From Eubacteriales bacterium (GTDB lineage: Bacteria; Bacillota; Clostridia; Oscillospirales; CAG-272), in the NCBI GenBank assembly GCA_045533675.1, contig JAZSIF010000044.1:5254-69253 (forward strand): DNA of 64,000 nucleotides. Reading direction: 5' to 3'. The notes beneath the pieces were generated by a model that was given only the letters and a program-made list of their open reading frames with translations, searched no databases and was not told the DNA's origin. A program made the translations under genes and the position numbers. Within the stretch, counting starts at the first letter, position 1, and each line of letters starts with the position of its first letter. Positions 6,223 through 63,958 of this stretch are shown piece after piece.

Positions 6223-6266
6223 GACTCCGCTCTACGCGCACGCACGCAAGAGCGGAGTCTTTTATT
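6223..6266 (+). terminator. Rho-independent terminator
   Basis: GACTCCGCTCT (6223-6233) pairs with AGAGCGGAGTC (6249-6259), followed by TTTTATT. Confidence 0.8.
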
Positions 6267-6274
6267 ATTTGAAA

Positions 6275-6379
6275 ACGGACCGTCGAGGACGTCGGTCCCC
6301 AAAAGTAGGCACGCCATGTGTAGGACTTGATGTAAGAAAAAATTTGTGTGAAAGTTTTGCGCCGCTTTTTCAAAAGCGG
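6275..6379. repeat. F1 intergenic repeat, one-ended copy (hairpin-3 module plus right end)
   Basis: ACGGACCGTCGAGGACGTCGGTCC (6275-6298) also occurs at 63881-63906. AATTTGTGTGAAAGTTTTGCGCCGCTTTTTCAAAAGCGG (6341-6379) matches the right ends at 13969-14006, 42600-42636 and 47789-47828. Confidence 0.75.
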
Positions 6380-6408
6380 AAAAATTCACTCATAACTAAC
6401 GATCCAAT

Positions 6409-8808: not shown

Positions 8809-10203
8809 ATGAAATTTGCGTTGTTTTTCGGAAACCGCGGATTTATGCCTGCTGAGCTGATCGCGGTCGCAAGAACCGATATGATCAAGGCAGTGACCGA
8901 TGCGGGTCACGAGGTCCTGACCATGGATGAAAAGGCGACCCGCTACGGCGCGGTCGAGACCCGTGATGAGGGAAGACTCTATCACGATTGGCTCAAGTCC
9001 CATGAGGGCGAGTATGACGGTGTCATTCTCTGTATGCCCATCTTTATCGACGAGAACGGCGCAGTGACCGCCCTACAGGATGCGGGTGTGCCGATCCTTA
9101 TGCAGGCATATCCCGACGAGATCGGCAAGATGGACTTCCAGCACCGCCGTGACGCGTACTGCGGAAAGTTCTCGGTGACCGACGTATTCTATCAGTACAA
9201 GATCCCCTTCACGGTGATGAAGCCCCACGTGGTTCATCCTCTCAGCGATGCCTTCAAGCAGAACCTTGCTGACTTTGCCGCCATCTGCCGTGTGGTCAAG
9301 GGCATGAAGCGCTTCAACCTCGGTTGTATCGGCGCGAGGACCACCGCCTTCAAGACGGTTCGCTTTGATGAGGTAACCCTCCAGAGATACGGCATCAACG
9401 TAGAGTCCTTCGACCTCTCCGAGCTCTTCTTCAAGGTTAACAACAAGGCAGACGACGATGCCACGGTGATTGCCAAGATGCAGAGACTGGAGAACTACGC
9501 GGATTTTAGCCGTGTACCTCTTCGCAACAAGCTGACTCTGGCAAAGATTTCCGTGGTCATCGATGAGTACATCGAGGAATATCACCTGGATGCCGTGACG
9601 CTCCGTTGCTGGAACGAGATGGAGACCGTTCTCCGTGTATGCCCCTGCGTGCTGATCTCCGAGCTGAACGACCGTGGAATCGTTTGCTCCTGTGAGATCG
9701 ACTTGACCAGTGCCATTACCATGAGAGCCATGGCTCTGGCATCCGAGAAGCCTACCGCTTGCCTTGACTGGAACAACAACTACGGCGAGGAGGAAAATAA
9801 AGTCATTCTCTTCCACTGCGGACCTGTGGCGCAGACGCTGATGGCAGAAAAGGGGACCGTTACCGAGCACAAAATGTTCGCTAAGGGTGATCCCGGAAGC
9901 GGATGGGGCTCCAACGAGGGTCGCATTGCCGCCTTCGATATGACCTTCTCCAACGGATTTACTGAGGACGGTAAGCTGAAGGTCTACGCAAGCGAGGCGA
10001 GGTTTACGGGAGAGCCTATTGAGGCTGCCTTCTTCGGCTGCGGCGGTGTTGCCGAGATCCCGAACCTTCAGGATAAGCTGATCAAGCTGGCAAAGGGTGG
10101 CTTTAAACACCACACCACCGTTGGTATGGGTCACATGAAGGCGGTTCTTGAGGAAGCCTTTGGTACATATCTCGGTTACGAGATCATAAATATTGACAAC
10201 TGA
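8809..10203 (+). CDS. L-fucose/L-arabinose isomerase-family sugar isomerase (short, about 465-aa type)
   Basis: 464-aa ORF starting 1 nt after the kinase stop. Overall resemblance to FucI/AraA-like family proteins. Substrate unknown. Confidence 0.75.
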   Translation: MKFALFFGNRGFMPAELIAVARTDMIKAVTDAGHEVLTMDEKATRYGAVETRDEGRLYHDWLKSHEGEYDGVILCMPIFIDENGAVTALQDAGVPILMQAYPDEIGKMDFQHRRDAYCGKFSVTDVFYQYKIPFTVMKPHVVHPLSDAFKQNLADFAAICRVVKGMKRFNLGCIGARTTAFKTVRFDEVTLQRYGINVESFDLSELFFKVNNKADDDATVIAKMQRLENYADFSRVPLRNKLTLAKISVVIDEYIEEYHLDAVTLRCWNEMETVLRVCPCVLISELNDRGIVCSCEIDLTSAITMRAMALASEKPTACLDWNNNYGEEENKVILFHCGPVAQTLMAEKGTVTEHKMFAKGDPGSGWGSNEGRIAAFDMTFSNGFTEDGKLKVYASEARFTGEPIEAAFFGCGGVAEIPNLQDKLIKLAKGGFKHHTTVGMGHMKAVLEEAFGTYLGYEIINIDN

Positions 10204-10219
10204 TAAGGAGAAAAGAATT

Positions 10220-11071
10220 ATGTTAGTAGGATTGAAAGAAGTTCTTGCTGAGGGCAAAAAGAGAGGCATTGCTGTTGGAAATTTTAACACGCCTACCTTG
10301 GAGTGCCTGATTGCCGTATTAGATGCCGCTGAGGAGCTGGACGTTCCCGTCATCATTGCTCATGCGCAGGTTCACGAGCCTGTGGCTCCCATTGATAAGA
10401 TCGGACCTGTAATGGTTGAGCTTGCCAAGCGCGCGAAGGTGAAGGTGTGCGCGCACCTGGACCACGGCGAGGATTTTGATTACTGCAAGAGAGCGATCGA
10501 TATCGGCTTTACCTCTATTATGATCGACTGCTCCACGCTTCCCTATGAGGAAAACGTAGCTGAGACCGCAAGAGTGACCGAGTATGCACACTCCCGCGGT
10601 GTGGACGTGGAGTCCGAGCTTGGAAGCCTTCCTCAGCGTGAGGGTGGCGCAGATAACGGAAGCGCTCCCGCAAAGCCCGAGGATCTTTACACCAAGCCCG
10701 AGCTTGTGCCCGATTATCTCGCTCGCACCGGTGTTGACGCGTTGGCGATTGCCTTCGGTACCGCACACGGTATCTACAAGGTGAAGCCCGTCTTGAACAT
10801 GGATATCATCACCGAGATCCGCAAGCGTTCCGACATTCCGTTGGTCATGCACGGCGGAAGCGGTATTTCGCATGAGGAATACCGTGAGGTCATTCGCCGT
10901 GGTGTCAACAAGATCAACTACTATTCCTATATGTCCTACGAGGGATATGCCAACGCTAAGGCAACCGTCGAGGCAACACCCGCTGATTTCTTCCACAATC
11001 TGGCGTACAACGCAACCCTTGCTATGAAGGAAAACGCAAAGGCAACCATGAAGGTCTTTGCGGGGATGTGA
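10220..11071 (+). CDS. Class II fructose/tagatose-bisphosphate aldolase-family protein
   Basis: ORF track 10193..11071. AAGGAG RBS before ATG 10220. Motifs GNFN, HLDHG and VMHGGSG of the class II FBA/KbaY/GatY family. Confidence 0.88.
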   Translation: MLVGLKEVLAEGKKRGIAVGNFNTPTLECLIAVLDAAEELDVPVIIAHAQVHEPVAPIDKIGPVMVELAKRAKVKVCAHLDHGEDFDYCKRAIDIGFTSIMIDCSTLPYEENVAETARVTEYAHSRGVDVESELGSLPQREGGADNGSAPAKPEDLYTKPELVPDYLARTGVDALAIAFGTAHGIYKVKPVLNMDIITEIRKRSDIPLVMHGGSGISHEEYREVIRRGVNKINYYSYMSYEGYANAKATVEATPADFFHNLAYNATLAMKENAKATMKVFAGM

Positions 11072-13677: not shown

Positions 13678-13793
13678 GGATGCGGGTCGCTTTTGAAAAA
13701 GCTCCGCAAAACTTTTTATACAAATTATGGGTTATTTTAACATCACGTCCTATATAGGGTGTGCCGTATAACCTTTAGTTTTTCTCTAATGTA

Positions 13794-13847
13794 GAAAACC
13801 ATCGGACTGCATTGCTTGCGCATGCCACCGATGGTTTTCTTTTTTTT
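13794..13847 (+). terminator. Terminator hairpin (F1 hairpin-1 module)
   Basis: GAAAACCATCGG (13794-13805) pairs with CCGATGGTTTTC (13828-13839), followed by T8. Confidence 0.8.
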
Positions 13848-13860
13848 AATTCAATAAAAT

Positions 13861-13897
13861 GAAACCCGTCGGGACGCAGCAGGGTCCGACGGGTTTC
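13861..13897 (-). terminator. Terminator hairpin (F1 hairpin-2 module) for the minus-strand operon
   Basis: GAAACCCGTCGG..CCGACGGGTTTC. On the minus strand it is followed by ATTTTATT. The same hairpin occurs at 47683-47720. Confidence 0.7.
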
Positions 13898-14010
13898 TTC
13901 CTTAGAGAAAGAACAATAAGTTATTGTTTGCACAATGAAAAGGAACGTGTGTAAAACCGAGAAATCATTTGTATGAAAAGTTTTGCGCCGCTTTTTCAAA
14001 AGCGGCAAAT

Positions 14011-14041
14011 CGCATCCCCGCATCCCCGCATCCTCGCATCC
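14011..14041. repeat. 8-bp tandem repeat (CGCATCCY) x about 4
   Basis: CGCATCCC CGCATCCC CGCATCCT CGCATCC, between the two right-end motifs of the F1 copy. Confidence 0.9.
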
Positions 14042-30678: not shown

Positions 30679-30942
30679 GTGTCATCTTGAGCGGAGCAAA
30701 CCATCCGGTGAATGGTTTGCGTAGTCGAACCCGACGAAAGGAGGGCAACGCGGCAGCGTTGAGATCTACGCGGATTGTTTGTTTTCAAGTCCCTTGTTTT
30801 GCGGAATATATTCTTTATGGCAAAAGGCTTCGGGTAAGTCATAGGAGATCCCGTCGTCGCCGATGGCTCCTCGGTTTTGGATCGGCTCGCGAGGCTCCCT
30901 CACCAAAACTTCGACTCCGCTCCGCTTCGCTCAGGATGACAC
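30679..30942 (+). mobile_element. F2 element copy 1: MITE-like structured repeat with GTGTCATCYTGAGCGRAG inverted termini
   Basis: GTGTCATCTTGAGCGGAG at 30679 and CTTCGCTCAGGATGACAC ending at 30942. The first 72 nt are identical to copy 2 (42283-42354). Internal hairpin GCAAACCAT-N7-ATGGTTTGC. No credible ORF. Confidence 0.6.
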
Positions 30943-31050
30943 ATAACGGATGGCAGGTCAATAAACGGCGCGCTTGTTCGACGCCGGCAGTATCAGGGCT
31001 ATGCCCGAAACTGAAATACCCTCCGTTTTATTTGTCTGCGAGGCCATGGA

Positions 31051-32490
31051 TTAGCTTCTCGAATACAGCTCGCAAAGGGACTTGAACTTTTGGGGATCGG
31101 CGGAGCGGAGCTGGTCCTCGGTGATACGGTAGCGCCAGTTGTTGGTCGCCTTGCCCGGGGTGTTCATACGGGTGTCGGCACCGTACACGAGAATATCTTG
31201 CATGGGGAAGATCGCCAGATCCGCATGGCTTGCCATGACGGTCTTAAGAATCATTTCGCATCCGAGATTCCAGTCGTCGTCCTTGGCGTTACAGTAAGTC
31301 AGTACGCGTCTGCGGGAATCGGGGTCACATTCCCACACGTAGCCAAGCAGGGTATTGTTGTCGTGAGTGCCCGTATATGCCACACAATTTTTTACATAGT
31401 TATGGGGGCGATGCGGGGAATCGCTGTTGTCCATAAAGCCGAATTGCAGGACCCGCATGCCGGGAAATTTGCTATATTTTAAAAGATCGATAACCTCGGG
31501 GGTGATGTCCCCTAAGTCCTCGGCGATCACCAGACGGTCCTTGGCGACCTCTCGGATCGCGTTGACAAGCGCCCTGCCGGGACCCTTGACCCATTTTCCC
31601 TCCTTGGCGGATTTTGCCGCGGCGGGAATGCTCCAGTAGGATTCGATTCCACGGAAGTGGTCAATGCGAACACCGTCAAAAAGGGTGAGCATATATTCCA
31701 TGCGGCGGCGCCACCAGGAAAAGCCGCTTTTTTTCATGGCGCTCCAGCGGTAAAGGGGATTGCCCCATAGCTGACCGTCCTCGGAAAAATAATCGGGAGG
31801 ACATCCCGCTACCGCCGAGGGGTAGCCCTTGGCATCCAGCTGAAATTCCTCTCGGTTTGCCCATACGTCGGCACTGTCTGCCGCCACGTAGATGGGAATG
31901 TCTCCGATGATCTCAATGCCGCGGCGGTTGGCGTATTCCTTGAGAGACATCCACTGGGTAAAGAATTCATGCTGAATGAATTGCCAAAGCGCCAGCTCGT
32001 CCTCGTCAGGGGTCGTGATCGTCCATTCCTGCCAGGGAAGACCCCTGTTGGCTTTTTTGAGGGCGAGAAACTCCGATGCTTTTTGGAGCTCGGGATAGCT
32101 TTCAAGAAACGCGGCGATCCCACGCTTCTCCTCCTTGCTCACACGGGAGGCGGCAAGGGCGAGGAGAGCGAGACGCTCTTTTGCCAGTCGGTCAAACTCG
32201 CAGAGATAGGGAGAGCCTTGACGGGCACTCAAAACCTCTCTGTCGGTCAAAAGACCCTTGGCTCTCAGGGTGGGCAGATCAATAAAATAGGGGTTTCCGC
32301 CAAAGGCAGAATAGGATTTGTAAGGGGAATTGTATTCGTCGGTCATGCAAAAGGGCAGTACCTGCCATTTTTGAAAGCCGCAATCGGCAAGAAAATCCAC
32401 GAAGAAGCGGGCTTCCTTACCAAAGGAGCCGCAGGAATAGTCTCCGGGGAGAGAAGAGACGTGCATGAGCACGCCGGAAGAACGGTTCAT
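31051..32490 (-). CDS. malQ: 4-alpha-glucanotransferase (GH77 amylomaltase), paralog 1
   Basis: ORF track 31051..32700. AGGAGG RBS before ATG 32490 gives MNRSSGVLMHVSSLPG. GH77 motifs: NPYFID, RIDHFRG, GEDLG-like AEDLG, TGTHDN. Confidence 0.92.
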   Translation of the reverse strand: MNRSSGVLMHVSSLPGDYSCGSFGKEARFFVDFLADCGFQKWQVLPFCMTDEYNSPYKSYSAFGGNPYFIDLPTLRAKGLLTDREVLSARQGSPYLCEFDRLAKERLALLALAASRVSKEEKRGIAAFLESYPELQKASEFLALKKANRGLPWQEWTITTPDEDELALWQFIQHEFFTQWMSLKEYANRRGIEIIGDIPIYVAADSADVWANREEFQLDAKGYPSAVAGCPPDYFSEDGQLWGNPLYRWSAMKKSGFSWWRRRMEYMLTLFDGVRIDHFRGIESYWSIPAAAKSAKEGKWVKGPGRALVNAIREVAKDRLVIAEDLGDITPEVIDLLKYSKFPGMRVLQFGFMDNSDSPHRPHNYVKNCVAYTGTHDNNTLLGYVWECDPDSRRRVLTYCNAKDDDWNLGCEMILKTVMASHADLAIFPMQDILVYGADTRMNTPGKATNNWRYRITEDQLRSADPQKFKSLCELYSRS

Positions 32491-39727: not shown

Positions 39728-40557
39728 GAAAGAGAATGACCATGAATATCCACTCTCACGGGGGAGCGGATGACGGATATAAGCAAAAGGAGCTGGCGGA
39801 GTTTCTTCTGCGGGAGAGCCCCTCTGTGGTGGCGTTGCAGGAGGTCTGTCAGACAAGAAGCGCCCCTGTCCGTGAGCCGCCGAGGGGCTTTCGTGTGATG
39901 GGGGAGGAGATCCCCCTGCGGGAGGACAATTTTCTCTTAGGGCTCTTTGATCTTCTTGGGGGAGAATACGAGGCGGTGTGGCTTCCCGTCAAGGTAGGCT
40001 ACGGCACAAGAGACGAGGGGCTGGCGCTTCTCACCCGCTTTCCCGCGGGAGAGGCGAGGGAAATCCTCCTGACTCCCTACCGTCCCTATGAGGACTGGAG
40101 ACGGCGCTCGGCGCTGGCTGTCTCTGATCCCTCGGGCAGGGAATGGACGGTGTCCTTGCACATGAGCTGGTGGGAGGAGGGCTTTCTCTTGGAATGGAAT
40201 CGGCTCTCCGCCTCCCTTCGCGATGCGCCCTCGGTTTGGCTTATGGGAGATTTCAACCTGCCCTCTTGGCAGATGGAGAGGGAAGGGGACCCGCTTGCCC
40301 GTGAGGGCTATGCCGATGCCTTTTCCTTGGCAAAGCGGCGGGACGAGGAGGATACCGTGCTCCCTTATGCCGACGGTTGGCGGGAGCGGTCGGCGGGAGC
40401 GGACGGTTTGCGGATCGACGGGATCCGATGCCGCCCCGCTCGCCCCGTTCTCAGGTACCGCAGGATCTTTGACGGAAGAGAAGAGCCTGTCCTTTCCGAC
40501 CATTTTGGAATTATGATCGAAACCGAGGAGGATGAAGATGAACACAAACGCTCGTAA
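39724..40557 (+). CDS. Endonuclease/exonuclease/phosphatase-family protein, candidate maltose-6'-phosphate phosphatase (MapP-like)
   Basis: 277-aa ORF with ATGA overlap to the PTS stop. EEP motifs ALQEV, GDFN and SDHFG. The MapP call rests on context only. Confidence 0.7.
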   Translation: MRKRMTMNIHSHGGADDGYKQKELAEFLLRESPSVVALQEVCQTRSAPVREPPRGFRVMGEEIPLREDNFLLGLFDLLGGEYEAVWLPVKVGYGTRDEGLALLTRFPAGEAREILLTPYRPYEDWRRRSALAVSDPSGREWTVSLHMSWWEEGFLLEWNRLSASLRDAPSVWLMGDFNLPSWQMEREGDPLAREGYADAFSLAKRRDEEDTVLPYADGWRERSAGADGLRIDGIRCRPARPVLRYRRIFDGREEPVLSDHFGIMIETEEDEDEHKRS

Positions 40558-42040
40558 AGCGGGAGTCCTGCTCCCCGTCACCGCTCTGCCGTCTCCCTTT
40601 GGCATTGGGTGCTTCTCAAAAGAAGCTTATGAATTTGCGGACGCCTTGGCGGAAAGCGGACAGAGATATTGGCAGGTGCTTCCGCTTTCCCCCACCTCCT
40701 TTGGCGACTCTCCCTATCAATCCCCCTCCGCCTTTGCGGGGAATCCCTATTTCATTGACCTTTTCGGTCTTGTGGAGGATGGACTCCTTTCACGAAAGGA
40801 ATGCGAGGAAGCCCTTGGGGACGCGCCCGAGGATTATGTGGACTACGGTCTGCAATATGACAAAAGACTCCCCCTTCTGAAGCTGGCGGCAAGCCGCTTC
40901 CGAGAAAGGGAGAGCGAGGAATATCGAGAATTTTCAGAAAAGAATCAGGGCTGGCTTGACGATTACGCCCTCTTTATGGCACTGAAGGACTCCCTTGGGG
41001 GGCTTCCCTTGGCGCAATGGGAAAAGGGGCTTCGCCTTCGTGATCCGCAAGCGATTTCCGAGGCAAGGAAAAGACTCTCGGAGGAAATGGAGGTCTATCG
41101 CTTTCTCCAATTCCGCTTTTTTGAGGAATGGGGGCGGCTGCGGGCGTATGCCAATGAGAGGGGAATTCGTATCATCGGCGACCTGCCCATTTACGTCTCG
41201 GCGGACAGCGCGGACGTGTGGGCAAACCCCGAGCTCTTTTTACTGGACGGGGAGGGAGCGCCCCTTCGTGTGGCGGGCTGTCCCCCCGACGATTTCAGTG
41301 AGGGCGGTCAGCTTTGGGGCAATCCTCTCTACCGTTGGGACGCCCATCGGAGAGAGGATTACGCTTGGTGGCTTGCCAGACTTTCCCAAGCCTTTGAGCT
41401 CTTTGACACCGTGCGGATCGACCATTTCAGAGGCTTTGATTCCTACTATTCGATCCCCGCGGGGGACCCCGACGCAAAAGGAGGCAGATGGGAAAAGGGA
41501 ATCGGCGACGAATTTTTTCGCGTGGCAAGAGAGACGCTGGGCGAGAGGGAGATTCTTGCCGAGGATCTTGGCTTTACCACCGACTCGGTACGGTCGCTTC
41601 TTGAATCCTGTGGATTCCCCGGCATGAAAATCCTGCAATTCGGGTTTGGGGGAGAGGAGGGAGAGTATTCCTCGGAGGACCTGCCCCACAATTACCCCGC
41701 TCATTGCGTTGCCTACACGGGTACTCACGACAACGCTACCCTTTTTCAATGGCTCTCGGAGGCATCCGAGAAAGAAAAAAACAAGGTGCGGGAATATCTT
41801 TGGACACGGGAGGAATCCGTGAGGGCGCTTTCGGAAAGCCTGATTGCCGCCCTCATGCGCTCTCCCGCCGAGCTCTGTGTGGTTCCCTTACAGGACTACC
41901 TTGGACTTGGGAAGGAAGCCCGAATGAACGTTCCCGCCCGAGCCGTGGGAAATTGGCAATGGCGGGTGAGAGCGGAGGAACTGACAGAGGAGCTCCGGGA
42001 AAGGATTCGGAGATATTCAAAAATCGGCGGGAGGAGTTAG
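40538..42040 (+). CDS. malQ: 4-alpha-glucanotransferase (GH77), paralog 2
   Basis: ORF track 40532..42040. GAGGAGG ends at 40531, so ATG 40538 is favoured. GH77 motifs: NPYFID, RIDHFRG, AEDLG, TGTHDN. Confidence 0.92.
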   Translation: MNTNARKAGVLLPVTALPSPFGIGCFSKEAYEFADALAESGQRYWQVLPLSPTSFGDSPYQSPSAFAGNPYFIDLFGLVEDGLLSRKECEEALGDAPEDYVDYGLQYDKRLPLLKLAASRFRERESEEYREFSEKNQGWLDDYALFMALKDSLGGLPLAQWEKGLRLRDPQAISEARKRLSEEMEVYRFLQFRFFEEWGRLRAYANERGIRIIGDLPIYVSADSADVWANPELFLLDGEGAPLRVAGCPPDDFSEGGQLWGNPLYRWDAHRREDYAWWLARLSQAFELFDTVRIDHFRGFDSYYSIPAGDPDAKGGRWEKGIGDEFFRVARETLGEREILAEDLGFTTDSVRSLLESCGFPGMKILQFGFGGEEGEYSSEDLPHNYPAHCVAYTGTHDNATLFQWLSEASEKEKNKVREYLWTREESVRALSESLIAALMRSPAELCVVPLQDYLGLGKEARMNVPARAVGNWQWRVRAEELTEELRERIRRYSKIGGRS

Positions 42041-42192
42041 TTGGGGAGGTTAGTTGGGCATAGGAGAGGACGCGGGGACGCGGTCGCTTTTGAATAAGCT
42101 CCGCAAAACTTTTATTACAAATTATTTTTTGGGGTCCTACAATATCTCCTATTCCTTGTGTTCCGTGTAACTGAATGTTTTTTTCTAAGGTA

Positions 42193-42527: not shown

Positions 42528-42672
42528 ATGAAGGAATGAAAAGTATAATCTATACGGTACACAAGGAATAGGAGATATTGTAGGACCCCAAAAAATAATT
42601 TTCGGAAAAGTTTTGCCGCGCTTTTTCAAAAGCGCGAAAAAACCTATTATCAACTAACTCCTCAACTAACCT

Positions 42673-47623: not shown

Positions 47624-47828
47624 GGGTCTGCTTTTTTCCTCCGCTACGGTGCGGGGTACGCAAAACTTTTTTATTTAAAAAAGAAACCCGTCGGGACGCA
47701 GCAGGGTCCGACGGGTTTTTACCTTAGAGAAAAAAGTTTCAATGATAGAGCACACGATGCGTAGAACGTGATGGAATAAAGAGCAAAAATTTGTATGAAA
47801 AGTTTTGCCGCGCTTTTTCAAAAGCGCG
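47624..47828. repeat. F1 intergenic repeat copy (degenerate left end, hairpin-2 module, intact right end)
   Basis: Left end GGGTCTGCTTTTTTCCTCCGC..CGCAAAACTTTTTTAT. Right end ATTTGTATGAAAAGTTTTGCCGCGCTTTTTCAAAAGCGCG (47789-47828). Confidence 0.75.
47683..47720. terminator. Bidirectional terminator hairpin (F1 hairpin-2 module)
   Basis: GAAACCCGTCGG..CCGACGGGTTT, flanked by A6 upstream and T5 downstream. It lies between convergent ppiase and ylbJ-like genes. Confidence 0.8.
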
Positions 47829-47866
47829 AAAAAAACCTCATCTTAACTAACTCCCCACAACCCTCC

Positions 47867-49249: not shown

Positions 49250-50454
49250 TCATGCCACATCCTCTTCTTTTTTTGCTGGGCTACCGCGCGATCACCGCCA
49301 AGCGGGAGGATGCGGCACGGCTTTGCGAGCTTTGCAGACAAAAGGGCTTTGTTTATCGCCGATTGACCTTTTCGGAGGAATCGGTTACCTTCCGTTGTTC
49401 TATCGGAACGGCAAAACGGCTTAAAGCCGAAGCCTACGGGCAGGGGCTCGCCATCCGCGTGGGAGAGGTGAAGGGGCTGCCCGGCATTCTGTACGAGCGT
49501 CGGTATCGGTTTGGAATCCCTTTTGGAATTCTGTTCTGTGTGTTTTTCTTTGTTTGGTCGGAGGGGACCCTTTTCTCGATTCGGGTGGATGGAAATTCCA
49601 AGCTCAGTGATGAGGAAATTATCGAGGAGCTTTCGGCATGTGGGCTTTCTGTGGGGGACTCTCTCCGAGGGCTTGATACCTCAATCCTCGAAAACCGTGT
49701 GCTCATCGCCTCGGAGGACATTGCCTGGATCAGCGTCAATCTGCGGGGCAACGTAGCCCACGTGGTAGTCAGGGAGCGGGAAGCCCCTCCCGCGGAGGAG
49801 CGGGCGGATGCCTCGAATCTGGTTGCCAAGCGGGGCGGGATCATTGAGTGGATGGAGGAGATCCGCGGCGAGATCGTGGTTGAAGTGGGGGATGCGGTGG
49901 CAGAGGGAGACCTTCTCGTGAGCGGCGTTTACGGAAAAGAGGACGGACCTCTCCGCATTTCCCGCGCCTCGGGACGGGTCTACGCGCGAACACAGCGGCA
50001 ATTCGAGGTTCGGATTCCCCTTGCCTATGAAAAAAAGGAGTACACGGGGGAGGTCCTCTCCGAAAAATATTTGATTTTCTTTAAAAAAGAAGTAAAATTT
50101 TTCGCAAATACTGGAAATTTACCCCCCACTTGTGATACAATAGAAAGGGTAGAGCATTTCGGTCTGCGGGAGGACAGCACCCTGCCTGTGGGGATTCGCA
50201 CCGTGGAGTTTCTCGAATACCGCACGGTGGAAGCCAAACGATCTCCCGATGCCGCCGAGGAGCTGGCGTATTACTATCTGCGCTTGCGGATGGAGAGCGA
50301 GATCCCCGAGGGGATGCTGGTTCGGAAATCCCTCCGTACCGAGCTGACTGACGAAGAATTCGTGCTCTATTGCGATGCCGAATATATTGAGGATATTGCC
50401 GAAGTAAAAAATATAGAAGTAGAAGGGAGCCTTGCTCCCGCGGAGAGAGAATGA
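49246..50454 (+). CDS. yqfD: Sporulation protein YqfD
   Basis: 402-aa ORF overlapping the yqfC stop. One central TM. Typical yqfC-yqfD-phoH order. Confidence 0.85.
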   Translation: MIMPHPLLFLLGYRAITAKREDAARLCELCRQKGFVYRRLTFSEESVTFRCSIGTAKRLKAEAYGQGLAIRVGEVKGLPGILYERRYRFGIPFGILFCVFFFVWSEGTLFSIRVDGNSKLSDEEIIEELSACGLSVGDSLRGLDTSILENRVLIASEDIAWISVNLRGNVAHVVVREREAPPAEERADASNLVAKRGGIIEWMEEIRGEIVVEVGDAVAEGDLLVSGVYGKEDGPLRISRASGRVYARTQRQFEVRIPLAYEKKEYTGEVLSEKYLIFFKKEVKFFANTGNLPPTCDTIERVEHFGLREDSTLPVGIRTVEFLEYRTVEAKRSPDAAEELAYYYLRLRMESEIPEGMLVRKSLRTELTDEEFVLYCDAEYIEDIAEVKNIEVEGSLAPAERE

Positions 50455-51494
50455 CACAAAAAACCGTACTGATCGAGAACAGTGAGCTGACCGCCCGTCT
50501 GTTCGGAAGCTATGACGTGAATGCCCGCATGGTGGAGCGTGCCTTTTCGGTGACTCTGCGCAACCGTGCCTCCGAGGAGGGGGACGCGGTCCTCATCAGC
50601 GGCGAGGACGAGGAGTCTGTCCGCATGGCGGCGGACGCGGTCCGCTATATGAGGGACATGGCAAAAAAGGGAGAGACCCTTACGGAGCAACAGGTGGGCT
50701 ACGTCATTGACACCCTCAAGGAGGGAAAGGCAGAGGAGCTTGCGGGGCTTCAGGGGGACTGTATCTGTATCACCACCAAGGGAAAGCCCATCAAGGCAAA
50801 GACGGCGGGACAGAAGCAGTACGTGAACGCCATTGAGAGGAATACGGTCGTGTTTGGCATCGGACCCGCGGGAACGGGTAAGACCTTTCTGGCGGTTGCC
50901 ATGGCGGTCAAGGCGCTGAGAGATAAGCAGGTCAGCCGTATTATTCTCACCCGCCCCGCCATTGAAGCGGGAGAGAAGCTTGGCTTTCTGCCGGGGGATC
51001 TGCAAAGCAAGATCGACCCCTATCTCCGACCCCTGTATGACGCCATGTACGAAATGCTTGGGGCGGAGAATTATCAAAGACAGTTAGAAAAAGGGGTTAT
51101 TGAGATCGCCCCCTTGGCGTATATGCGAGGGCGGACTCTGGATGACAGCTTCATTATCTTAGACGAGGCGCAGAACGCCACCCCCGAGCAGATGAAGATG
51201 TTTCTCACCCGTCTCGGATTCAATTCCAAGGCGGTGATCACGGGAGATCTCACACAGACCGACCTGCCCGCGGGACACAAGAGCGGACTTTCGGTGGCGG
51301 TCAAGATTCTCGGCGGGGTGGAGGATATTGCCATCCACACCTTCACCGACCGTGACGTGGTTCGTCACAAGCTGGTGCAGAGGATCATCCGCGCCTATGA
51401 GAAATACGAGCAAAGCGAACAGGAAAAGCAAGAAAAAAAGGCAGCCGCCAAGCGTTACCGCGCGGAGCGGGCGAATAAAGGAGACGTACAATGA
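50451..51494 (+). CDS. phoH: PhoH-family ATPase
   Basis: 347-aa ORF with GPAGTGKT Walker A and ILDEAQN Walker B. ATGA overlap with yqfD. Confidence 0.93.
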   Translation: MTQKTVLIENSELTARLFGSYDVNARMVERAFSVTLRNRASEEGDAVLISGEDEESVRMAADAVRYMRDMAKKGETLTEQQVGYVIDTLKEGKAEELAGLQGDCICITTKGKPIKAKTAGQKQYVNAIERNTVVFGIGPAGTGKTFLAVAMAVKALRDKQVSRIILTRPAIEAGEKLGFLPGDLQSKIDPYLRPLYDAMYEMLGAENYQRQLEKGVIEIAPLAYMRGRTLDDSFIILDEAQNATPEQMKMFLTRLGFNSKAVITGDLTQTDLPAGHKSGLSVAVKILGGVEDIAIHTFTDRDVVRHKLVQRIIRAYEKYEQSEQEKQEKKAAAKRYRAERANKGDVQ

Positions 51495-51976
51495 AAGACA
51501 GAGTGATGATCTATTTTGCCAACCAACAGAAGGAGGGGGTCATTAGCTATGCCCTCAAAATGCTTTTGCGCCGTGCCGTGGTGGCGACCCTTGACTATGA
51601 GGGCTTCTCAAACGAATGCTCGGTGTCCATCACCTTTACCGACAACGAGGGAATTCGGGAGCTGAATCGGGAGCATCGGAATATGGACCGTCCCACCGAC
51701 GTGCTTTCCTTTCCTCTCATTGATTTTGAGGGGGGCGAGGAGCCCTCGGTGGACGAGCCTGTGGTCATGCTGGGAGACATCGTTCTTTCCCTGGAAAAGG
51801 CAGAGGAGCAGGCAGGGGAGTATGGACACAGCTTTGAGAGAGAAACGGCATTTCTTTGCGTTCATTCCATGCTCCACCTCCTCGGCTACGACCACGTAGG
51901 GAGTGATGAGGAGGATGCTGAAATGCGCCGCCGCCAGAGAGAGATTCTCGAAAATATGGGGCTTTCGGTGAAATAA
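51491..51976 (+). CDS. ybeY: rRNA maturation endoribonuclease YbeY
   Basis: 161-aa ORF with HSMLHLLGYDH zinc motif. Confidence 0.94.
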   Translation: MKDRVMIYFANQQKEGVISYALKMLLRRAVVATLDYEGFSNECSVSITFTDNEGIRELNREHRNMDRPTDVLSFPLIDFEGGEEPSVDEPVVMLGDIVLSLEKAEEQAGEYGHSFERETAFLCVHSMLHLLGYDHVGSDEEDAEMRRRQREILENMGLSVK

Positions 51977-52021
51977 GGGATGAAGAAAGAATGACCGAGG
52001 TTATCCTTGCTCGATGCAACC

Positions 52022-52224
52022 TGTCATCCTGAGCGAAGCCGAAGTTTTGTTGAGTGGAGCGTAAGCGCAACGATGCAAAACCGAGGAGCGATAGCGACGA
52101 TGGGATCTCCAAGGACTTACCCGTGTCATTCCTATTCGAAGAATATATTCTTTGAGGACGGAGGGATACGGAAACTCCTCAACAGATCCCTGCGAGCCTT
52201 ACGGCTCTTGCTTCGGGATGACAC
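52022..52224 (-). mobile_element. F2 element copy 3 (diverged, inverted relative to copies 1 and 2)
   Basis: TGTCATCCTGAGCGAAGC at 52022 and GGGATGACAC ending at 52224. The interior is roughly 75-80 percent similar by eye to the reverse complement of copy 1 (for example CGAAGTTTTG.., AAAACCGAGGAGC, GGGATCTCC, GACTTACCCG). Confidence 0.55.
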
Positions 52225-52272
52225 AGAGGGGGATGTGAGGTGGTTGTGGTTTGCGTTTGGAAAGGGACAAGT

Positions 52273-52554
52273 ATGTATTGTGTTTATATACTCACAAGTG
52301 AACAGAACACCGTCATGTATATCGGAGTAACAAATGACTTGTATCGACGTCTTCGAGAACACAATGCCGAAGAAATCCCGAGCTTTACTAAAAAATATCG
52401 GGTTCATAAGCTTGTCTATTTTGAAACCTATTCCGAAATAAACGACGCGCTCCATCGTGAAAAACAACTAAAGAGGTGGACTCGTGTCAAAAAAAATTTA
52501 CTTGTGGAATCCAAAAACCCCAACTGGGAAGATTGGGGAAAGAATTTTTTCTAA
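52273..52554 (+). CDS. GIY-YIG nuclease-family protein (small, UPF0213-like)
   Basis: ORF track 52240..52554. AAGGGA RBS before ATG 52273. Motifs YVYILTS..MYIGVTNDL..R..EH and REKQLKRW. Hand count gives 106 G+C in 282 nt. Confidence 0.88.
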   Translation: MYCVYILTSEQNTVMYIGVTNDLYRRLREHNAEEIPSFTKKYRVHKLVYFETYSEINDALHREKQLKRWTRVKKNLLVESKNPNWEDWGKNFF

Positions 52555-52587
52555 AAGAGATTTTTATAAAACAGAAAGAGAACAACT

Positions 52588-53475
52588 ATGAAAAAGACAG
52601 GATTTATCGCCATTGTAGGCCGTCCCAACGTGGGGAAATCGACGCTGCTCAATTCCATTCTCGGAGAGAAGGTCGCCATTGTGTCCTCCAAGCCCCAGAC
52701 CACGAGAAACCGCATCGCGGGAATCTTTACCCGCGGGGAGGAGCAGTTCGTGTTTTTGGATACCCCCGGCATCCACAGACCCAAGAACTCCCTCGGGGAA
52801 TACATGGTCAAGGCGGCGGACACTTCCATGCGTGAAGCGGATGCTCTGGTGCTGGTGGTGGACACGGGTAAGGATATTTCTCCCGTGGAGGAGAACGTGA
52901 TCGCCTACCTGAAAAAGAGCGGCATTCCCTCGGTGCTGGCGCTGAATAAAATCGATCAGGTCAACCGTGAGGAGCTGGCAAAAACCATCAGTCTTTATGC
53001 CGAAAAGCACGACTTCTCCGCCTTTGTGCCCATTAGCGCGCGGAGCGGAAAGAACGTCGGGGAGCTTTTGGACGAGTGCGCCAAATTCTTAGAGGAATCC
53101 CCTTGGTTTTTCCCCGAGGATATGATCACCGACCAGCCCGAGCGGCAGATTGCCGCCGAGATCATCCGTGAGAAAATTCTCCGTACCCTCAATAAGGAAG
53201 TGCCCCACGGCACGGCAGTGGTCATTGAGGAATTCAAGGAAGAGGGAAGTCTCATTCGCATCCGCGCCGAGATATTCTGCGAAAAGGCGTCCCATAAGGG
53301 AATTTTGGTGGGTAAGAATGGCGCGTCCTTAAAGCTCATCGGAACGTATGCCCGTGAGGAGCTGGAGAAGATGCTGGGTGTGAAGGTCTACCTGAACCTT
53401 TGGGTCAAGGTCAAGGAAAACTGGCGGGAAAGCGCCAGAACTGTCAGCAATTTCGGCTATCGTGACGAGGAATAA
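52588..53475 (+). CDS. era: GTPase Era
   Basis: 295-aa ORF. GRPNVGKST, DTPG and NKID G-motifs plus a C-terminal KH domain. Confidence 0.95.
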   Translation: MKKTGFIAIVGRPNVGKSTLLNSILGEKVAIVSSKPQTTRNRIAGIFTRGEEQFVFLDTPGIHRPKNSLGEYMVKAADTSMREADALVLVVDTGKDISPVEENVIAYLKKSGIPSVLALNKIDQVNREELAKTISLYAEKHDFSAFVPISARSGKNVGELLDECAKFLEESPWFFPEDMITDQPERQIAAEIIREKILRTLNKEVPHGTAVVIEEFKEEGSLIRIRAEIFCEKASHKGILVGKNGASLKLIGTYAREELEKMLGVKVYLNLWVKVKENWRESARTVSNFGYRDEE

Positions 53476-53481
53476 GCGCTC

Positions 53482-54276
53482 ATGAAGAAGACCGTGGACG
53501 GGCTCATCCTGCGGGAAAGACCCACGGGGGAGAGCGATAAGCTTCTGACCGTTCTGACAGCAGAGGAGGGAAGGGTCACCATGATCGCCAAGGGCGCCCG
53601 TTCCTCCCGTTCCAAGCTTTTGTCGGTCTGTCAGCTTTACAATTACGTCAATTTGGAATATTACGAAAAGAACGACCTGCGATGGGCATCGGGGGGATCG
53701 ATCAACGAGAATTTTTTTAAAATCTCCGAGGAGCTGGAGGGAGCGGCACTGGCGGCGTACCTCTCCGAGATTGCCATCGAGATCACGGGAGAGGGCGTAC
53801 CCGCCCCCGAGATTCTCCGCGCGCTGCTCAACTGTCTCTATTGCATCCGAGAGGGGAAAAAGCCGAAGGAACAGATCAAGGCGGTCTTTGAATGGTTTGC
53901 CGTCTCGGTATCGGGATTTTCTCCCGCCCTTGACGCTTGCGCCGAGTGCGGAAAGGCATTTGCCGCCGACCTTTGGCTGGACGTGATGAACGGACACCTG
54001 CTTTGCGGCGACTGTCTCGGAACGCGCAAGGGAGGAAGTGTTCCCACGGAGGAGGACGAGTATCGGGCAAGAAATATTCTTCTGCCCCTCACTCCTTGGG
54101 CATTGGCTTCGATTCGTTACATTCTGTCCGCTCCCATTTCCCGCGTGTTGGCTTTTTCCGCAAACGACTCGGAGGGCATGGAGAATCTGGCGAGAGCGGC
54201 AGAGGTGTATCTGCTTAACCACCTGGAGAGAAGCTTCCCCACCTTGGAGTTTTACCGCAGCGTGACCCATGAATGA
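53482..54276 (+). CDS. recO: DNA repair protein RecO
   Basis: 264-aa ORF. OB-fold N-terminus and Cys4 motif (CAECG..CGDC). Conserved position after era. Confidence 0.9.
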   Translation: MKKTVDGLILRERPTGESDKLLTVLTAEEGRVTMIAKGARSSRSKLLSVCQLYNYVNLEYYEKNDLRWASGGSINENFFKISEELEGAALAAYLSEIAIEITGEGVPAPEILRALLNCLYCIREGKKPKEQIKAVFEWFAVSVSGFSPALDACAECGKAFAADLWLDVMNGHLLCGDCLGTRKGGSVPTEEDEYRARNILLPLTPWALASIRYILSAPISRVLAFSANDSEGMENLARAAEVYLLNHLERSFPTLEFYRSVTHE

Positions 54277-58086: not shown

Positions 58087-58181
58087 TTCCCCTCAAAAAT
58101 ATAAAATTTTCTTTTGATGGGCGGAGCCAACCTCGGAGAGCGTGTGGGCGGCGCCGTCGGAGAAAGCGGAGCAAAGCGAAT

Positions 58182-58280
58182 ATCATTATCATTCCCATTC
58201 CCATTATCATTACCATTATCATTATCATTATCATTATCATTTTCATTTTCATTATCATTACCATTATCATTATCATTATC
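58182..58280. repeat. Imperfect hexanucleotide microsatellite (NNCATT) x 16.5
   Basis: Unit series: ATCATT ATCATT CCCATT CCCATT ATCATT ACCATT ATCATT x4 TTCATT x2 ATCATT ACCATT ATCATT x2 ATC. Confidence 0.95.
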
Positions 58281-58595
58281 GGCTTTTTTGGGTTCTTGGG
58301 TTTTAAAATTTTGCCGTTTTTAAGGAGAAAATCCCCCCCTTTTTTTCTCTCAAAAAATGGCGGTATATCAAGCTTTTTCAAGCTTCTTGGTTTTTCGGCT
58401 CGAGAAGAAAACCCATTGGGTTATTGGGTTTTCAGCCCCCCAAAATCCCTGTGCTTTCTTACACCCATATTATACCACGAAAAAAGTCTCAAACCGTCTC
58501 AGTTAGTCTCACCTTATCTCAATGATTGAGAAAAAATTTAAGCGAGAAAAACCTCTTCTTCAACGAACGAATTTCTAAAAAAATCCCACATGCCC

Positions 58596-63730: not shown

Positions 63731-63958
63731 GTTCAAAAGCGGCGCAAAGCTTTTATGCGAATTATGAATTGACTTTACAATGGATGTGTTGTAAGGCTTG
63801 ATCGTTTGTCTCTAAAAAAGAAATCCGTCGGACCGTGTTGCTTCGAGCGCTGCTGACGGATTTTCTTTTTGTAATGGATAACGGACCGTCGAGGACGTGG
63901 GTCCGTATCGTGCCCCAAACAAAAGTTTGACGGTTTTGTGTACTTTTTGTGAGCTTTT
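63731..63958. repeat. F1 intergenic repeat copy (left end, hairpin-1 and hairpin-3 modules, degenerate right end)
   Basis: GTTCAAAAGCGGCGCAAAGCTTTTATGCGAATTAT at 63731-63765. Hairpin at 63820-63870. ACGGACCGTCGAGGACGTGGGTCCGT at 63881-63906, as at 6275-6298. Confidence 0.65.
63820..63870 (+). terminator. Terminator hairpin after trxB (F1 hairpin-1 module)
   Basis: AAATCCGTC (63821-63829) pairs with GACGGATTT (63855-63863), followed by TCTTTTT. Confidence 0.75.

Follow-up and report, generated by a model that had tools for sequence, protein, structure and literature searches.

A hairpin repeat family accompanied by a stand-alone GIY-YIG nuclease gene, found inserted between ybeY and era in a Clostridia genome

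We analyzed a 64,000-nucleotide (nt) stretch of the genome of a Eubacteriales bacterium (GenBank assembly GCA_045533675.1, contig JAZSIF010000044.1, positions 5,254 to 69,253; hereafter the window), in which the gap between the host genes ybeY and era contains a gene for a 93-amino-acid (aa) GIY-YIG nuclease and one of three copies of an intergenic repeat, F2. The gap is best explained by the recent insertion of a composite selfish element belonging to a widespread family. Nuclease genes of this family and short hairpin modules of the kind that end F2 are physically linked across bacterial phyla. With modest conviction, we lean towards a hairpin-ended repeat family, similar to repetitive extragenic palindromic (REP) sequences and their REP-associated tyrosine transposases (RAYTs) or to miniature inverted-repeat transposable elements (MITEs), whose gene-bearing members encode the GIY-YIG nuclease.

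Linkage of gene and repeat across bacteria

A one-genome-per-species scan returned 567 confirmed relatives of the nuclease, from which we kept the best 80 (52–76% identical); counts out of 81 refer to these 80 loci plus the window, and labels beginning with L and P denote loci and family proteins, respectively. The hosts of the 80 loci are Clostridia, Treponema, Fibrobacter, Hymenobacter and other Bacteroidota, Ignavibacteria, Patescibacteria, Alpha- and Gammaproteobacteria, Bifidobacterium and Anaerolineae. The repeat motif GTCATCCTGAGCGAAG (≤3 mismatches) reached a density of 2.26 per kb (136 matches in 60 kb) within 400 bp of the nuclease gene, compared with 0.073 per kb beyond that distance (73 matches in the remaining 998 kb), a 31-fold enrichment; at ≤1 or ≤2 mismatches it was 34- and 41-fold. 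A motif copy was found within 400 bp in 53 of the 80 loci, from Clostridia, Spirochaetes, Fibrobacter, Bacteroidota, Patescibacteria, Proteobacteria, Actinobacteria and Chloroflexi, and the same pairing occurs on RefSeq plasmids of Planktothrix agardhii (Cyanobacteria) and Spirosoma oryzicola (Bacteroidota).

The motif also leaves a trace in protein databases. Among 150 family representatives drawn from a library of 1.8 billion proteins, open reading frames (ORFs) called too long contained motif-encoded peptides outside the domain 27 times, compared with 1.8 ± 1.3 after shuffling; these follow the patterns V[IT][LPS]S, H[FLSP]ER, A[QR][DNGS]D and L[RKEG][MV]T (for example, CHPE.., VILS.., ..FAQDD and ..LRMT). 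The original prediction had stated that short GIY-YIG genes in other phyla are often flanked by sequences translating to CHPERSEGS- or VILSEAKDL-type peptides, and had proposed looking for a statistical association across genomes; run on the 80 loci, that check gave the strong local enrichment described above, spanning at least eight phyla.

In the reverse direction the link is weak. Scanning metagenome contigs with the exact 16-mer identified at least 120 motif loci, mostly from soil, and among the matches listed the nuclease was present in 3 of 120, each time 61–263 bp from the motif. It was present in none of 91 viral contigs carrying the motif (3 of 211 loci when both sets are combined), and a protein pattern scan of viral contigs found no nuclease relative. 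When ORFs from the 120 listed metagenome loci were clustered, GIY-YIG was the sole genuine protein family that recurred at distances of up to 1.5 kb from the motif, and neither a transposase nor any other enzyme did so.

Insertion at the ybeY-era junction

The features of the window locus are as follows.

50451-51494: phoH (Pfam)
51491-51976, plus strand: ybeY, host gene left of the insertion (PF02130, E = 4.8e-46)
51984-51990: AGAAAGA, left member of a putative 7-bp direct repeat bordering the insert (weak, in a purine-rich context; comparison with the empty site in L201)
51991-52021: 31 nt of insert that separate the host spacer from F2 copy 3, missing from empty sites and with no repeat or family match
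52022-52224, minus strand: F2 copy 3, gene-less and hairpin-ended, in the opposite orientation to copies 1 and 2 and with one end shortened (repeat search, alignment and nhmmer, E = 1.5e-50)
52022-52110, plus strand: F2 copy 3 end module B, TGTCATCC-TGAGCGAAG...inner hairpin TTTTG/CAAAA...GGGATCTCC (sequence; family stem covariation)
52139-52152: F2 central palindrome AAGAATATATTCTT, kept in all three F2 copies (alignment)
52185-52224, minus strand: the other end module of F2 copy 3, reading TGTCATCCC-GAAGC..hairpin..GGGATC on the minus strand (sequence and fold)
52225-52272, plus strand: spacer containing AAGGGA, the probable ribosome-binding site of the nuclease gene (sequence)
52273-52554, plus strand: gene for the 93-aa stand-alone GIY-YIG nuclease, UPF0213/Slx1-like (PF01541, E = 6.9e-18)
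52573-52579: AGAAAGA, right copy of the possible border repeat (junction comparison)
52588-53475, plus strand: era, host gene right of the insertion (MMR_HSR1 and KH_2)
53482-54276: recO (Pfam)

The 611-bp gap comprises a 45-nt spacer, the 203-bp F2 copy 3 (beginning TGTCATCCTGAGCGAAGC and ending GCTTCGGGATGACA), 48 nt and the 93-aa ORF, whose ATG lies at 52273. The coordinates that the original prediction gave for this gap proved correct, including the 48 nt between the F2 terminus and the gene. Comparison with the closest relatives, available as metagenome contigs (five with 92% identical YbeY and two at 78%), revealed the order yabP-yqfD-phoH-ybeY-era-recO-mutS2 with a ybeY-era spacer of only 26–29 bp. 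Because the gap is 611 bp in the window and 28 bp in these relatives, approximately 583 bp have been inserted, and the insert is new in the window's lineage. The uninterrupted junction that the original prediction suggested looking for therefore exists; its expectation of dgkA or cdd after ybeY does not hold in this lineage, in which era directly follows ybeY. None of the 80 homologue loci carries phoH, ybeY, era or recO within 10 kb, so that the nuclease gene is not a conserved resident of this site; vertical conservation at this position, which would have spoken against the original prediction, is thus contradicted both by the relatives' junctions and by the homologues' neighborhoods.

The original prediction had argued for foreign origin from low G+C content, and its hand count for the nuclease gene was exact (106 of 282 nt, or 37.6%, compared with 54.1% for the window). 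However, in each of the 80 loci the gene has a lower G+C content than its surroundings (by a median of 12 points, range 2–30) while its G+C tracks that of the host, and low G+C is therefore a family trait and not by itself proof of foreignness. We rejected the compositional argument; foreign origin is established by the empty sites.

We placed the start at ATG 52273 rather than GTG 52240 because homologues begin MYYVYIL; the database entry for this protein is 104 aa long and starts at GTG 52240. The gene is co-oriented with ybeY and era. Matches to promoter and terminator consensus sequences were weak, at the level of shuffled sequence, and the consensus scan found no such match on the plus strand between the nuclease gene and era. 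Since the gene is co-oriented and no terminator follows it, read-through into era is plausible.

Anatomy of the hairpin module

Modules consist of GTC, a 5-nt stem strand, GAGCG-N-AG..(T)CGA, the complementary stem strand and TC; the minimal form is GTC-ATCCT-GAGCGAAGCGA-AGGAT-CTC. The tag GTCA is present in all aligned modules, and the loop blocks GAGCG-N-AG and (T)CGA are constant, many copies having an extra variable hairpin between both blocks; the F2 ends are of this longer kind. The stem 5-mer after GTC varies by genome (ATCCT, ATTCT, ATTCC, ATTTC, ATCTT, ATGTC, ATTGC, ATGCT, ATGTT, ACCCT and others) and its partner covaries: an exact stem complement lies downstream in 180 of 283 modules, compared with 35 ± 5.6 after stems were exchanged among modules. 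When 38 modules from loci selected by their protein were aligned without gaps, double-change cells numbered 29 compared with 7.4 ± 3.2, involving four of five stem pairs, a count that was reached in none of 500 shuffles and exceeded that of every slid register. The covariation indicates that the module is a hairpin maintained by selection.

Modules occur singly, as inverted doublets of 70–300 bp (median 93 bp), as head-to-tail arrays repeating every 86–132 bp and as stutters, which are tandem repeats of the first 12–20 nt of a module plus 6–25 nt of flank, with periods of 18–42 bp, directly outside a complete end (L020, L031, L047, L062, L076, L086, L151 and, in Planktothrix, L304). Stutters could be footprints of repeated nick-and-repair, or of slippage. 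F2 is best read as a long gene-less inverted doublet of this module family.

No strand asymmetry was detected in counts of G-U/G-T versus A-C pairs (42 versus 47 between left and right ends and 6 versus 3 within stems), and with a within-stem count of 6 versus 3 no strand can be assigned to the module. An apparent wobble excess of 44 versus 6 was discarded as the product of one recurrent variant (GGACC) at the outermost stem position. The module was also considered as a hammerhead, a hairpin ribozyme, an attC site or a tRNA-like structure, but inspection by eye led us to drop these readings because the core motifs are missing. Rfam 15 gave no match to the repeat in the window, in the gap at E ≤ 10 or in 16 related loci, where it matched only T-box, 5S and pemK elsewhere in the sequence.

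Arrangement of modules around the nuclease gene

In the commonest layout, the gene lies between two inverted copies of the GTCA-tagged module: 24 of 81 loci have an inward-pointing module on each side, with GTCA 45–60 nt before the start and 31–58 nt after the end of the gene, forming a unit of about 400 bp. A complete doublet ending 22–96 nt before the start codon, as in the window, was found in 14 loci (window included), while 30 loci have only one side occupied or show other arrangements. The gene stands exactly in place of the ~28-nt spacer of neighboring gene-less doublets in L033 and L034. The left stem differs from the right one in 19 of 27 enclosing units, often ATCCT versus ATTCT, and in 17 of these 19 both stems are compensated by partners of their own, so what is conserved is a local hairpin at each end and not end-to-end pairing. 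In many loci a module stands directly 5' of the ribosome-binding site. Elements with the inner sequences of the window's F2 adjoin the nuclease gene in six other Clostridia loci (L007, L009, L010, L014, L025 and L026), either upstream or downstream and in either orientation.

The association extends beyond the immediate flanks. Module copies more than 1 kb away share the gene-flanking stem of their own locus in 42 of 90 cases, compared with 14.7 ± 5.3 for the stems of other loci, and gene-less doublets concentrate next to the gene, as do tandem arrays and stutters. In 24 of 80 loci a contig end lies less than 1 kb from the nuclease gene (12.8 expected, P about 2e-4), an excess that marks an assembly-breaking repeat, and three loci have two nuclease copies within 20 kb.

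Several loci have neighborhoods of separate interest. On a Planktothrix agardhii plasmid (L304, NZ_LR882964.1, 18.5–19.5 kb), the gene, doublets and end stutters of 23 and 32 nt lie between an MmeI-type restriction-modification gene and the DISARM gene drmA. A gene-bearing unit is located between a T-box leader and valS in L019 (9667-10400) and directly upstream of valS in L038 (~9850-10400), possibly at a shared ancestral site; in L033, a T-box leader was found ~1.2 kb downstream of the unit (9063-9310), with no valS seen. Four Clostridia metagenome-assembled genomes (L001, L002, L003 and L008) share a conserved sequence of ~75 nt (ATACCTTTTGGCTTTAC..CCCCCGTTTTTGGCA..TATACCTTTTGG.CTTATGACCCACG) 3' of the nuclease gene, which in L003 and L001 (L001 1-190 and 469-560) also precedes the whole module-gene block and may mark a larger unit.

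The nuclease

PF01541 is the sole domain matched in the 93-aa protein (65 bits compared with a cutoff of 22.6, E = 6.9e-18), which places it in the GIY-YIG superfamily and agrees with the GIY-YIG-only architecture described in the original prediction. Residues Y5, Y16, G18, R26, H30, E63 and N75 are invariant in 38 homologues, which share the C-terminal subfamily signature EKQLKxWxRxKKxxLxExxNPxWxD (with KKN at KKx). The AlphaFold2 model (pLDDT 92.8) has three strands plus helices. Foldseek ranked 1zg2 first, followed by the Slx1 entries 4xlg, 7cq3 and 6seh (complexes with branched or flap DNA) and then UvrC, with I-TevI 15th by fold (E = 1); profile searches of the Protein Data Bank (PDB) returned 1zg2 (UPF0213, 9e-9) and 1ywl (7e-5). 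As a single domain of ~90–110 aa closest to BH0048, EF2693 and Slx1, the protein belongs to the UPF0213/prokaryotic Slx1-like stand-alone GIY-YIG group. Close homologue pairs have dN/dS values of 0.02–0.05, and the nuclease is intact and under strong purifying selection. The family is large (8,040 clusters at 50% identity with E ≤ 1e-10; 23,733 with E ≤ 1e-3) and is annotated just as 'GIY-YIG nuclease family protein'.

Other assignments were rejected. As a group I intron homing endonuclease, the protein reaches only 21.7 bits for TIGR01453 (cutoff 56), over residues 3–33 alone, and it ends at residue 93; a group I intron around the ORF had no Rfam match at the gathering score or at E ≤ 10. PADLOC produced only partial matches of 30 residues (E ≥ 1.6e-4) and no full-length defense family, and PHROGs likewise yielded only partial 30-residue matches, so this is not a known phage family.

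Gene callers often extend family ORFs into the flanking repeat (P0361-P0510), giving proteins of up to 207 aa with repeat-encoded tails, and such over-called ORFs inflate protein databases with artefactual termini. The longest family protein, P0365 (323 aa), has a large C-terminal extension that contains no repeat-encoded peptides.

F2 copies and other repeats in the window

Besides copy 3, the window contains two further F2 copies.

30680-30943, plus strand: F2 copy 1, gene-less, past a terminator-like hairpin between convergent genes, 108 nt after a GH77 stop codon
42284-42528, plus strand: F2 copy 2, gene-less, nested in another palindromic intergenic repeat (arms 42119-42169 and 42551-42601)

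The three copies span 203–264 bp and have inverted ends. A profile of copies 1 and 2 matches copy 3 at E = 1.5e-50 in the opposite orientation, and end module type B of copy 3 recurs in copies 1 and 2, with 97% complementary arms. In the window, matches to the 16-mer (≤3 mismatches) are confined to the six ends of the three copies (5 matches compared with 0.78 expected). In the single metagenome run holding the window, read depth rises 30–40-fold over the module, to 187 over 52037-52103 from ~4–6 in the flanks. Copies 1 and 2 each follow one of two paralogous GH77 4-alpha-glucanotransferase genes (31051-32490, minus strand; 40532-42040, plus strand), with copy 2 located 244 nt after the stop codon, and this paralogy explains the inverted repeats I2, I10 and I12. 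Relatives have both genes and no F2. Their syntenic contigs lack F2 at both sites, as well as the motif at the copy 1 site; the spacers carry a different repeat, so exact ends cannot be read. No target-site duplication was found beside copy 1 or copy 2.

A second, unrelated intergenic repeat family is present in the window (6258-6386, 13685-14012, 42082-42169 with 42551-42642, 47663-47834 and 63799-63904) and in relatives (L209 11085-11475 and L211 11430-12060), consisting of inverted arms (CGCTTTTGAAAAAGCTCCGCAAAACTTTT...) around one or two terminator-like hairpins (AGAAATCCGTCGG...CCGACGGATTTCT); it is into a member of this family, at 42082-42169 with 42551-42642, that F2 copy 2 is nested. 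Positions 58169-58288 hold a tandem array of the hexamers CATTAT, CATTCC and CATTTT at 12- and 18-bp spacing.

How the gene and the repeat may be related

If gene-bearing members of a REP/RAYT- or MITE-like family encode the nuclease, its relation to the repeat could resemble the service that RAYTs are supposed to render to REP repeats and their inverted doublets (REPINs). The nuclease would recognize and bind the folded hairpin end, a substrate that would suit an Slx1-like fold, and nick at or near the GTCA tag; replication or repair primed at the nick would then copy both the gene cassette and gene-less modules, preferentially nearby. Local copying of this kind would produce the arrays and stutters seen around the gene, along with the nested insertions there, and occasional ectopic events would seed new sites such as ybeY-era. 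The gene usually takes the place of a doublet's spacer and sometimes lies just outside a complete doublet, as in the window. F2 copies 1 and 2 would be non-autonomous substrates, and it is plausible that the nuclease serves these gene-less copies, at 30680 and 42284, in trans. The stronger version of this proposal is tentative, and in our estimation doubtful: that these are a new class of mobile element whose only protein, an Slx1-like nuclease of ~93 aa, recognizes folded GTCA-tagged hairpin ends and, by nick priming with host replication or repair, multiplies its own ~400-bp cassette together with gene-less repeats across most bacterial phyla.

Several observations weigh against a nuclease-encoding repeat family. 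GIY-YIG enzymes only hydrolyze DNA, so transposition would need host replication or repair. Approximately 98% of the motif sites among the matches listed have no nuclease nearby, and in 13 of 81 nuclease loci the gene has no module closer than 150 nt. The nuclease gene of the window is itself located outside F2, and no module follows it. The insert has no clear target-site duplication: AGAAAGA is present on both borders and once in the empty site (...AAAAGAAAGAGAAAAC..., L201), a weak match that, because the spacer is so purine-rich, is a mere hint of duplication. The three F2 copies are 75% alike on average and therefore do not represent a recent burst. Single short end modules fold no better than shuffles with standard DNA parameters (z of −1.05 to +1.2), which leaves the structural case resting on covariation; a DNA fold z of −2.0 was reached only by a 98-nt segment containing the inner hairpin of F2 copy 1. 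Finally, the window region was found in one DNA metagenome run and in no RNA run.

Among the alternatives, the one that survives best, though we consider it unlikely, is a homing-type passenger: independent REP- or MITE-like repeats would serve as a multi-copy target, and a free-standing GIY-YIG gene would be copied into doublet spacers by repair while leaving the repeats unmobilized. The exact replacement of the ~28-nt doublet spacer in L033 and L034 fits such a passenger well, as do the many repeats without a gene, movement of the gene between phyla at 52–63% identity, and the weak matches to GIY-YIG families that include the classic homing endonucleases. However, near-identical gene-less doublets standing in tandem beside the gene have remained unconverted (L029, L034 and L058), the gene also occurs outside complete doublets, as in the window, and the protein has no DNA-binding domain beyond its 93-aa core. 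Long-term purifying selection in a very large family is unlike the usual decay of homing genes, and a passenger does not account for the finding that no other enzyme recurs near the listed metagenome repeats.

It is less probable still that the nuclease is a host-maintenance partner, that is, a repair enzyme that resolves hairpins or cruciforms formed by the repeats during replication and restrains rather than spreads them. Prokaryotic Slx1-like stand-alone GIY-YIG proteins have been viewed as vertically inherited repair factors, in a phylogenomic survey that does not mention repeats (PMC1564403), and both the strong purifying selection and the nearest folds, which include Slx1 on branched DNA, are compatible with that role. 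A maintenance gene would not be expected to lack a conserved locus, to be missing from the ybeY-era site of the closest relatives or to be bounded by repeats at assembly breaks; moreover, arrays and stutters are densest beside the gene, the opposite of restraint.

A structured RNA, acting as leader, terminator, stabilizer, or guide or cofactor of the nuclease, appears very improbable, and the original prediction's option of an RNA cofactor is accordingly disfavored. Whole F2 copies do fold better than shuffles as RNA (z of −2.8 to −5.6), the stem covaries and modules directly precede ribosome-binding sites in many loci, yet the better-folding strand differs between F2 copies, wobble pairs show no asymmetry either between ends or inside stems, and Rfam has no match even at E ≤ 10. 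Modules also lie upstream or downstream of the gene in either orientation, and most copies, including the gene-less ~98% of those listed, are far from any nuclease gene.

That gene and repeat are unrelated AT-rich or repeat-prone features gathering in permissive intergenic spots is scarcely credible: they are adjacent and not nested in the window, and F2 copy 2 shows that landing inside other repeats occurs, but chance gathering is at odds with the 31-fold enrichment across phyla, the recurrent-neighbor result, the precise enclosure of the gene by modules with genome-specific, shared stems and the arrival of both features in a single 28-bp spacer.

Significance

The hairpin repeat is extremely common, as the 120 or more metagenome loci found with an exact 16-mer attest, and it yields junk peptides (..CHPERSEGS.., ..EILRFAQDDK) that clutter protein databases. 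A functional link with the nuclease would give a role to both, would explain many assembly breaks and mis-called ORFs, and would point to a minimal nuclease specific for structure plus sequence; it would also add a second, independent enzyme solution to resident repeats of the REP/RAYT type. Were the new class of mobile element real, it would be a functional analogue of REPIN-RAYT systems that uses a nuclease of unrelated fold, and perhaps the smallest known DNA element that is autonomous. The window locus further indicates that the essential ybeY-era operon can accommodate an insertion of this kind when the added gene is co-oriented. A literature search that included the repeat sequence strings and the REP, REPIN, RAYT and MITE contexts, with subscription-only papers outside its scope, found no description of the linkage and no paper connecting GIY-YIG genes with hairpin repeats; this is in line with the original prediction, which held the linkage to be uncharacterized, and the family is apparently undescribed.

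Comparison with known systems

At the protein level, the best sequence and fold matches are to UPF0213/COG2827 (PDB 1zg2 and 1ywl), which has the same minimal single-domain architecture; the subfamily described here differs in its C-terminal signature, its association with a repeat and its mobility. T4 Seg proteins are free-standing GIY-YIG homing endonucleases, and with homing endonucleases of this fold (I-TevI) the nuclease shares the catalytic core, the character of a selfish, horizontally moving gene and insertion between conserved genes. In contrast to them, it has no C-terminal DNA-binding domain and no intron, its gene is bounded by a dispersed repeat and its nearest folds are UPF0213 and Slx1 rather than I-TevI.

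Among mobile elements, IS200/IS605 members are similarly very small and have folded subterminal hairpins that differ between ends and are likely recognition elements; here, however, there is neither TnpA (Y1) nor TnpB, the ends are mutual inverted repeats and no strand bias was detected. MITEs and their parent insertion sequences offer a closer parallel, with terminal inverted repeats, non-coding, multi-copy units of 70–300 bp that nest in other repeats, and a longer form that has the same ends and carries a gene. The differences are that no DDE, serine or tyrosine transposase and no clear target-site duplication were found here, and that each end is a covarying hairpin, left and right ends often differing.

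Closest in behavior is the REP/REPIN-RAYT system, which differs in its enzyme, an HUH/Y1 (IS200-like) transposase in place of a GIY-YIG hydrolase, and in its tag, GTAG or CGTC in place of GTCA. RAYT genes are typically single-copy and vertically inherited (PMC5581495), whereas the gene studied here has no conserved locus, is spread over at least eight phyla and often lies at assembly breaks. The two systems nevertheless share a short hairpin repeat with a 5' tetranucleotide tag, present as intergenic singlets, inverted doublets and tandem clusters in genome-specific variants, and one small nuclease gene, under purifying selection, that is flanked by inverted copies of a repeat also dispersed elsewhere.

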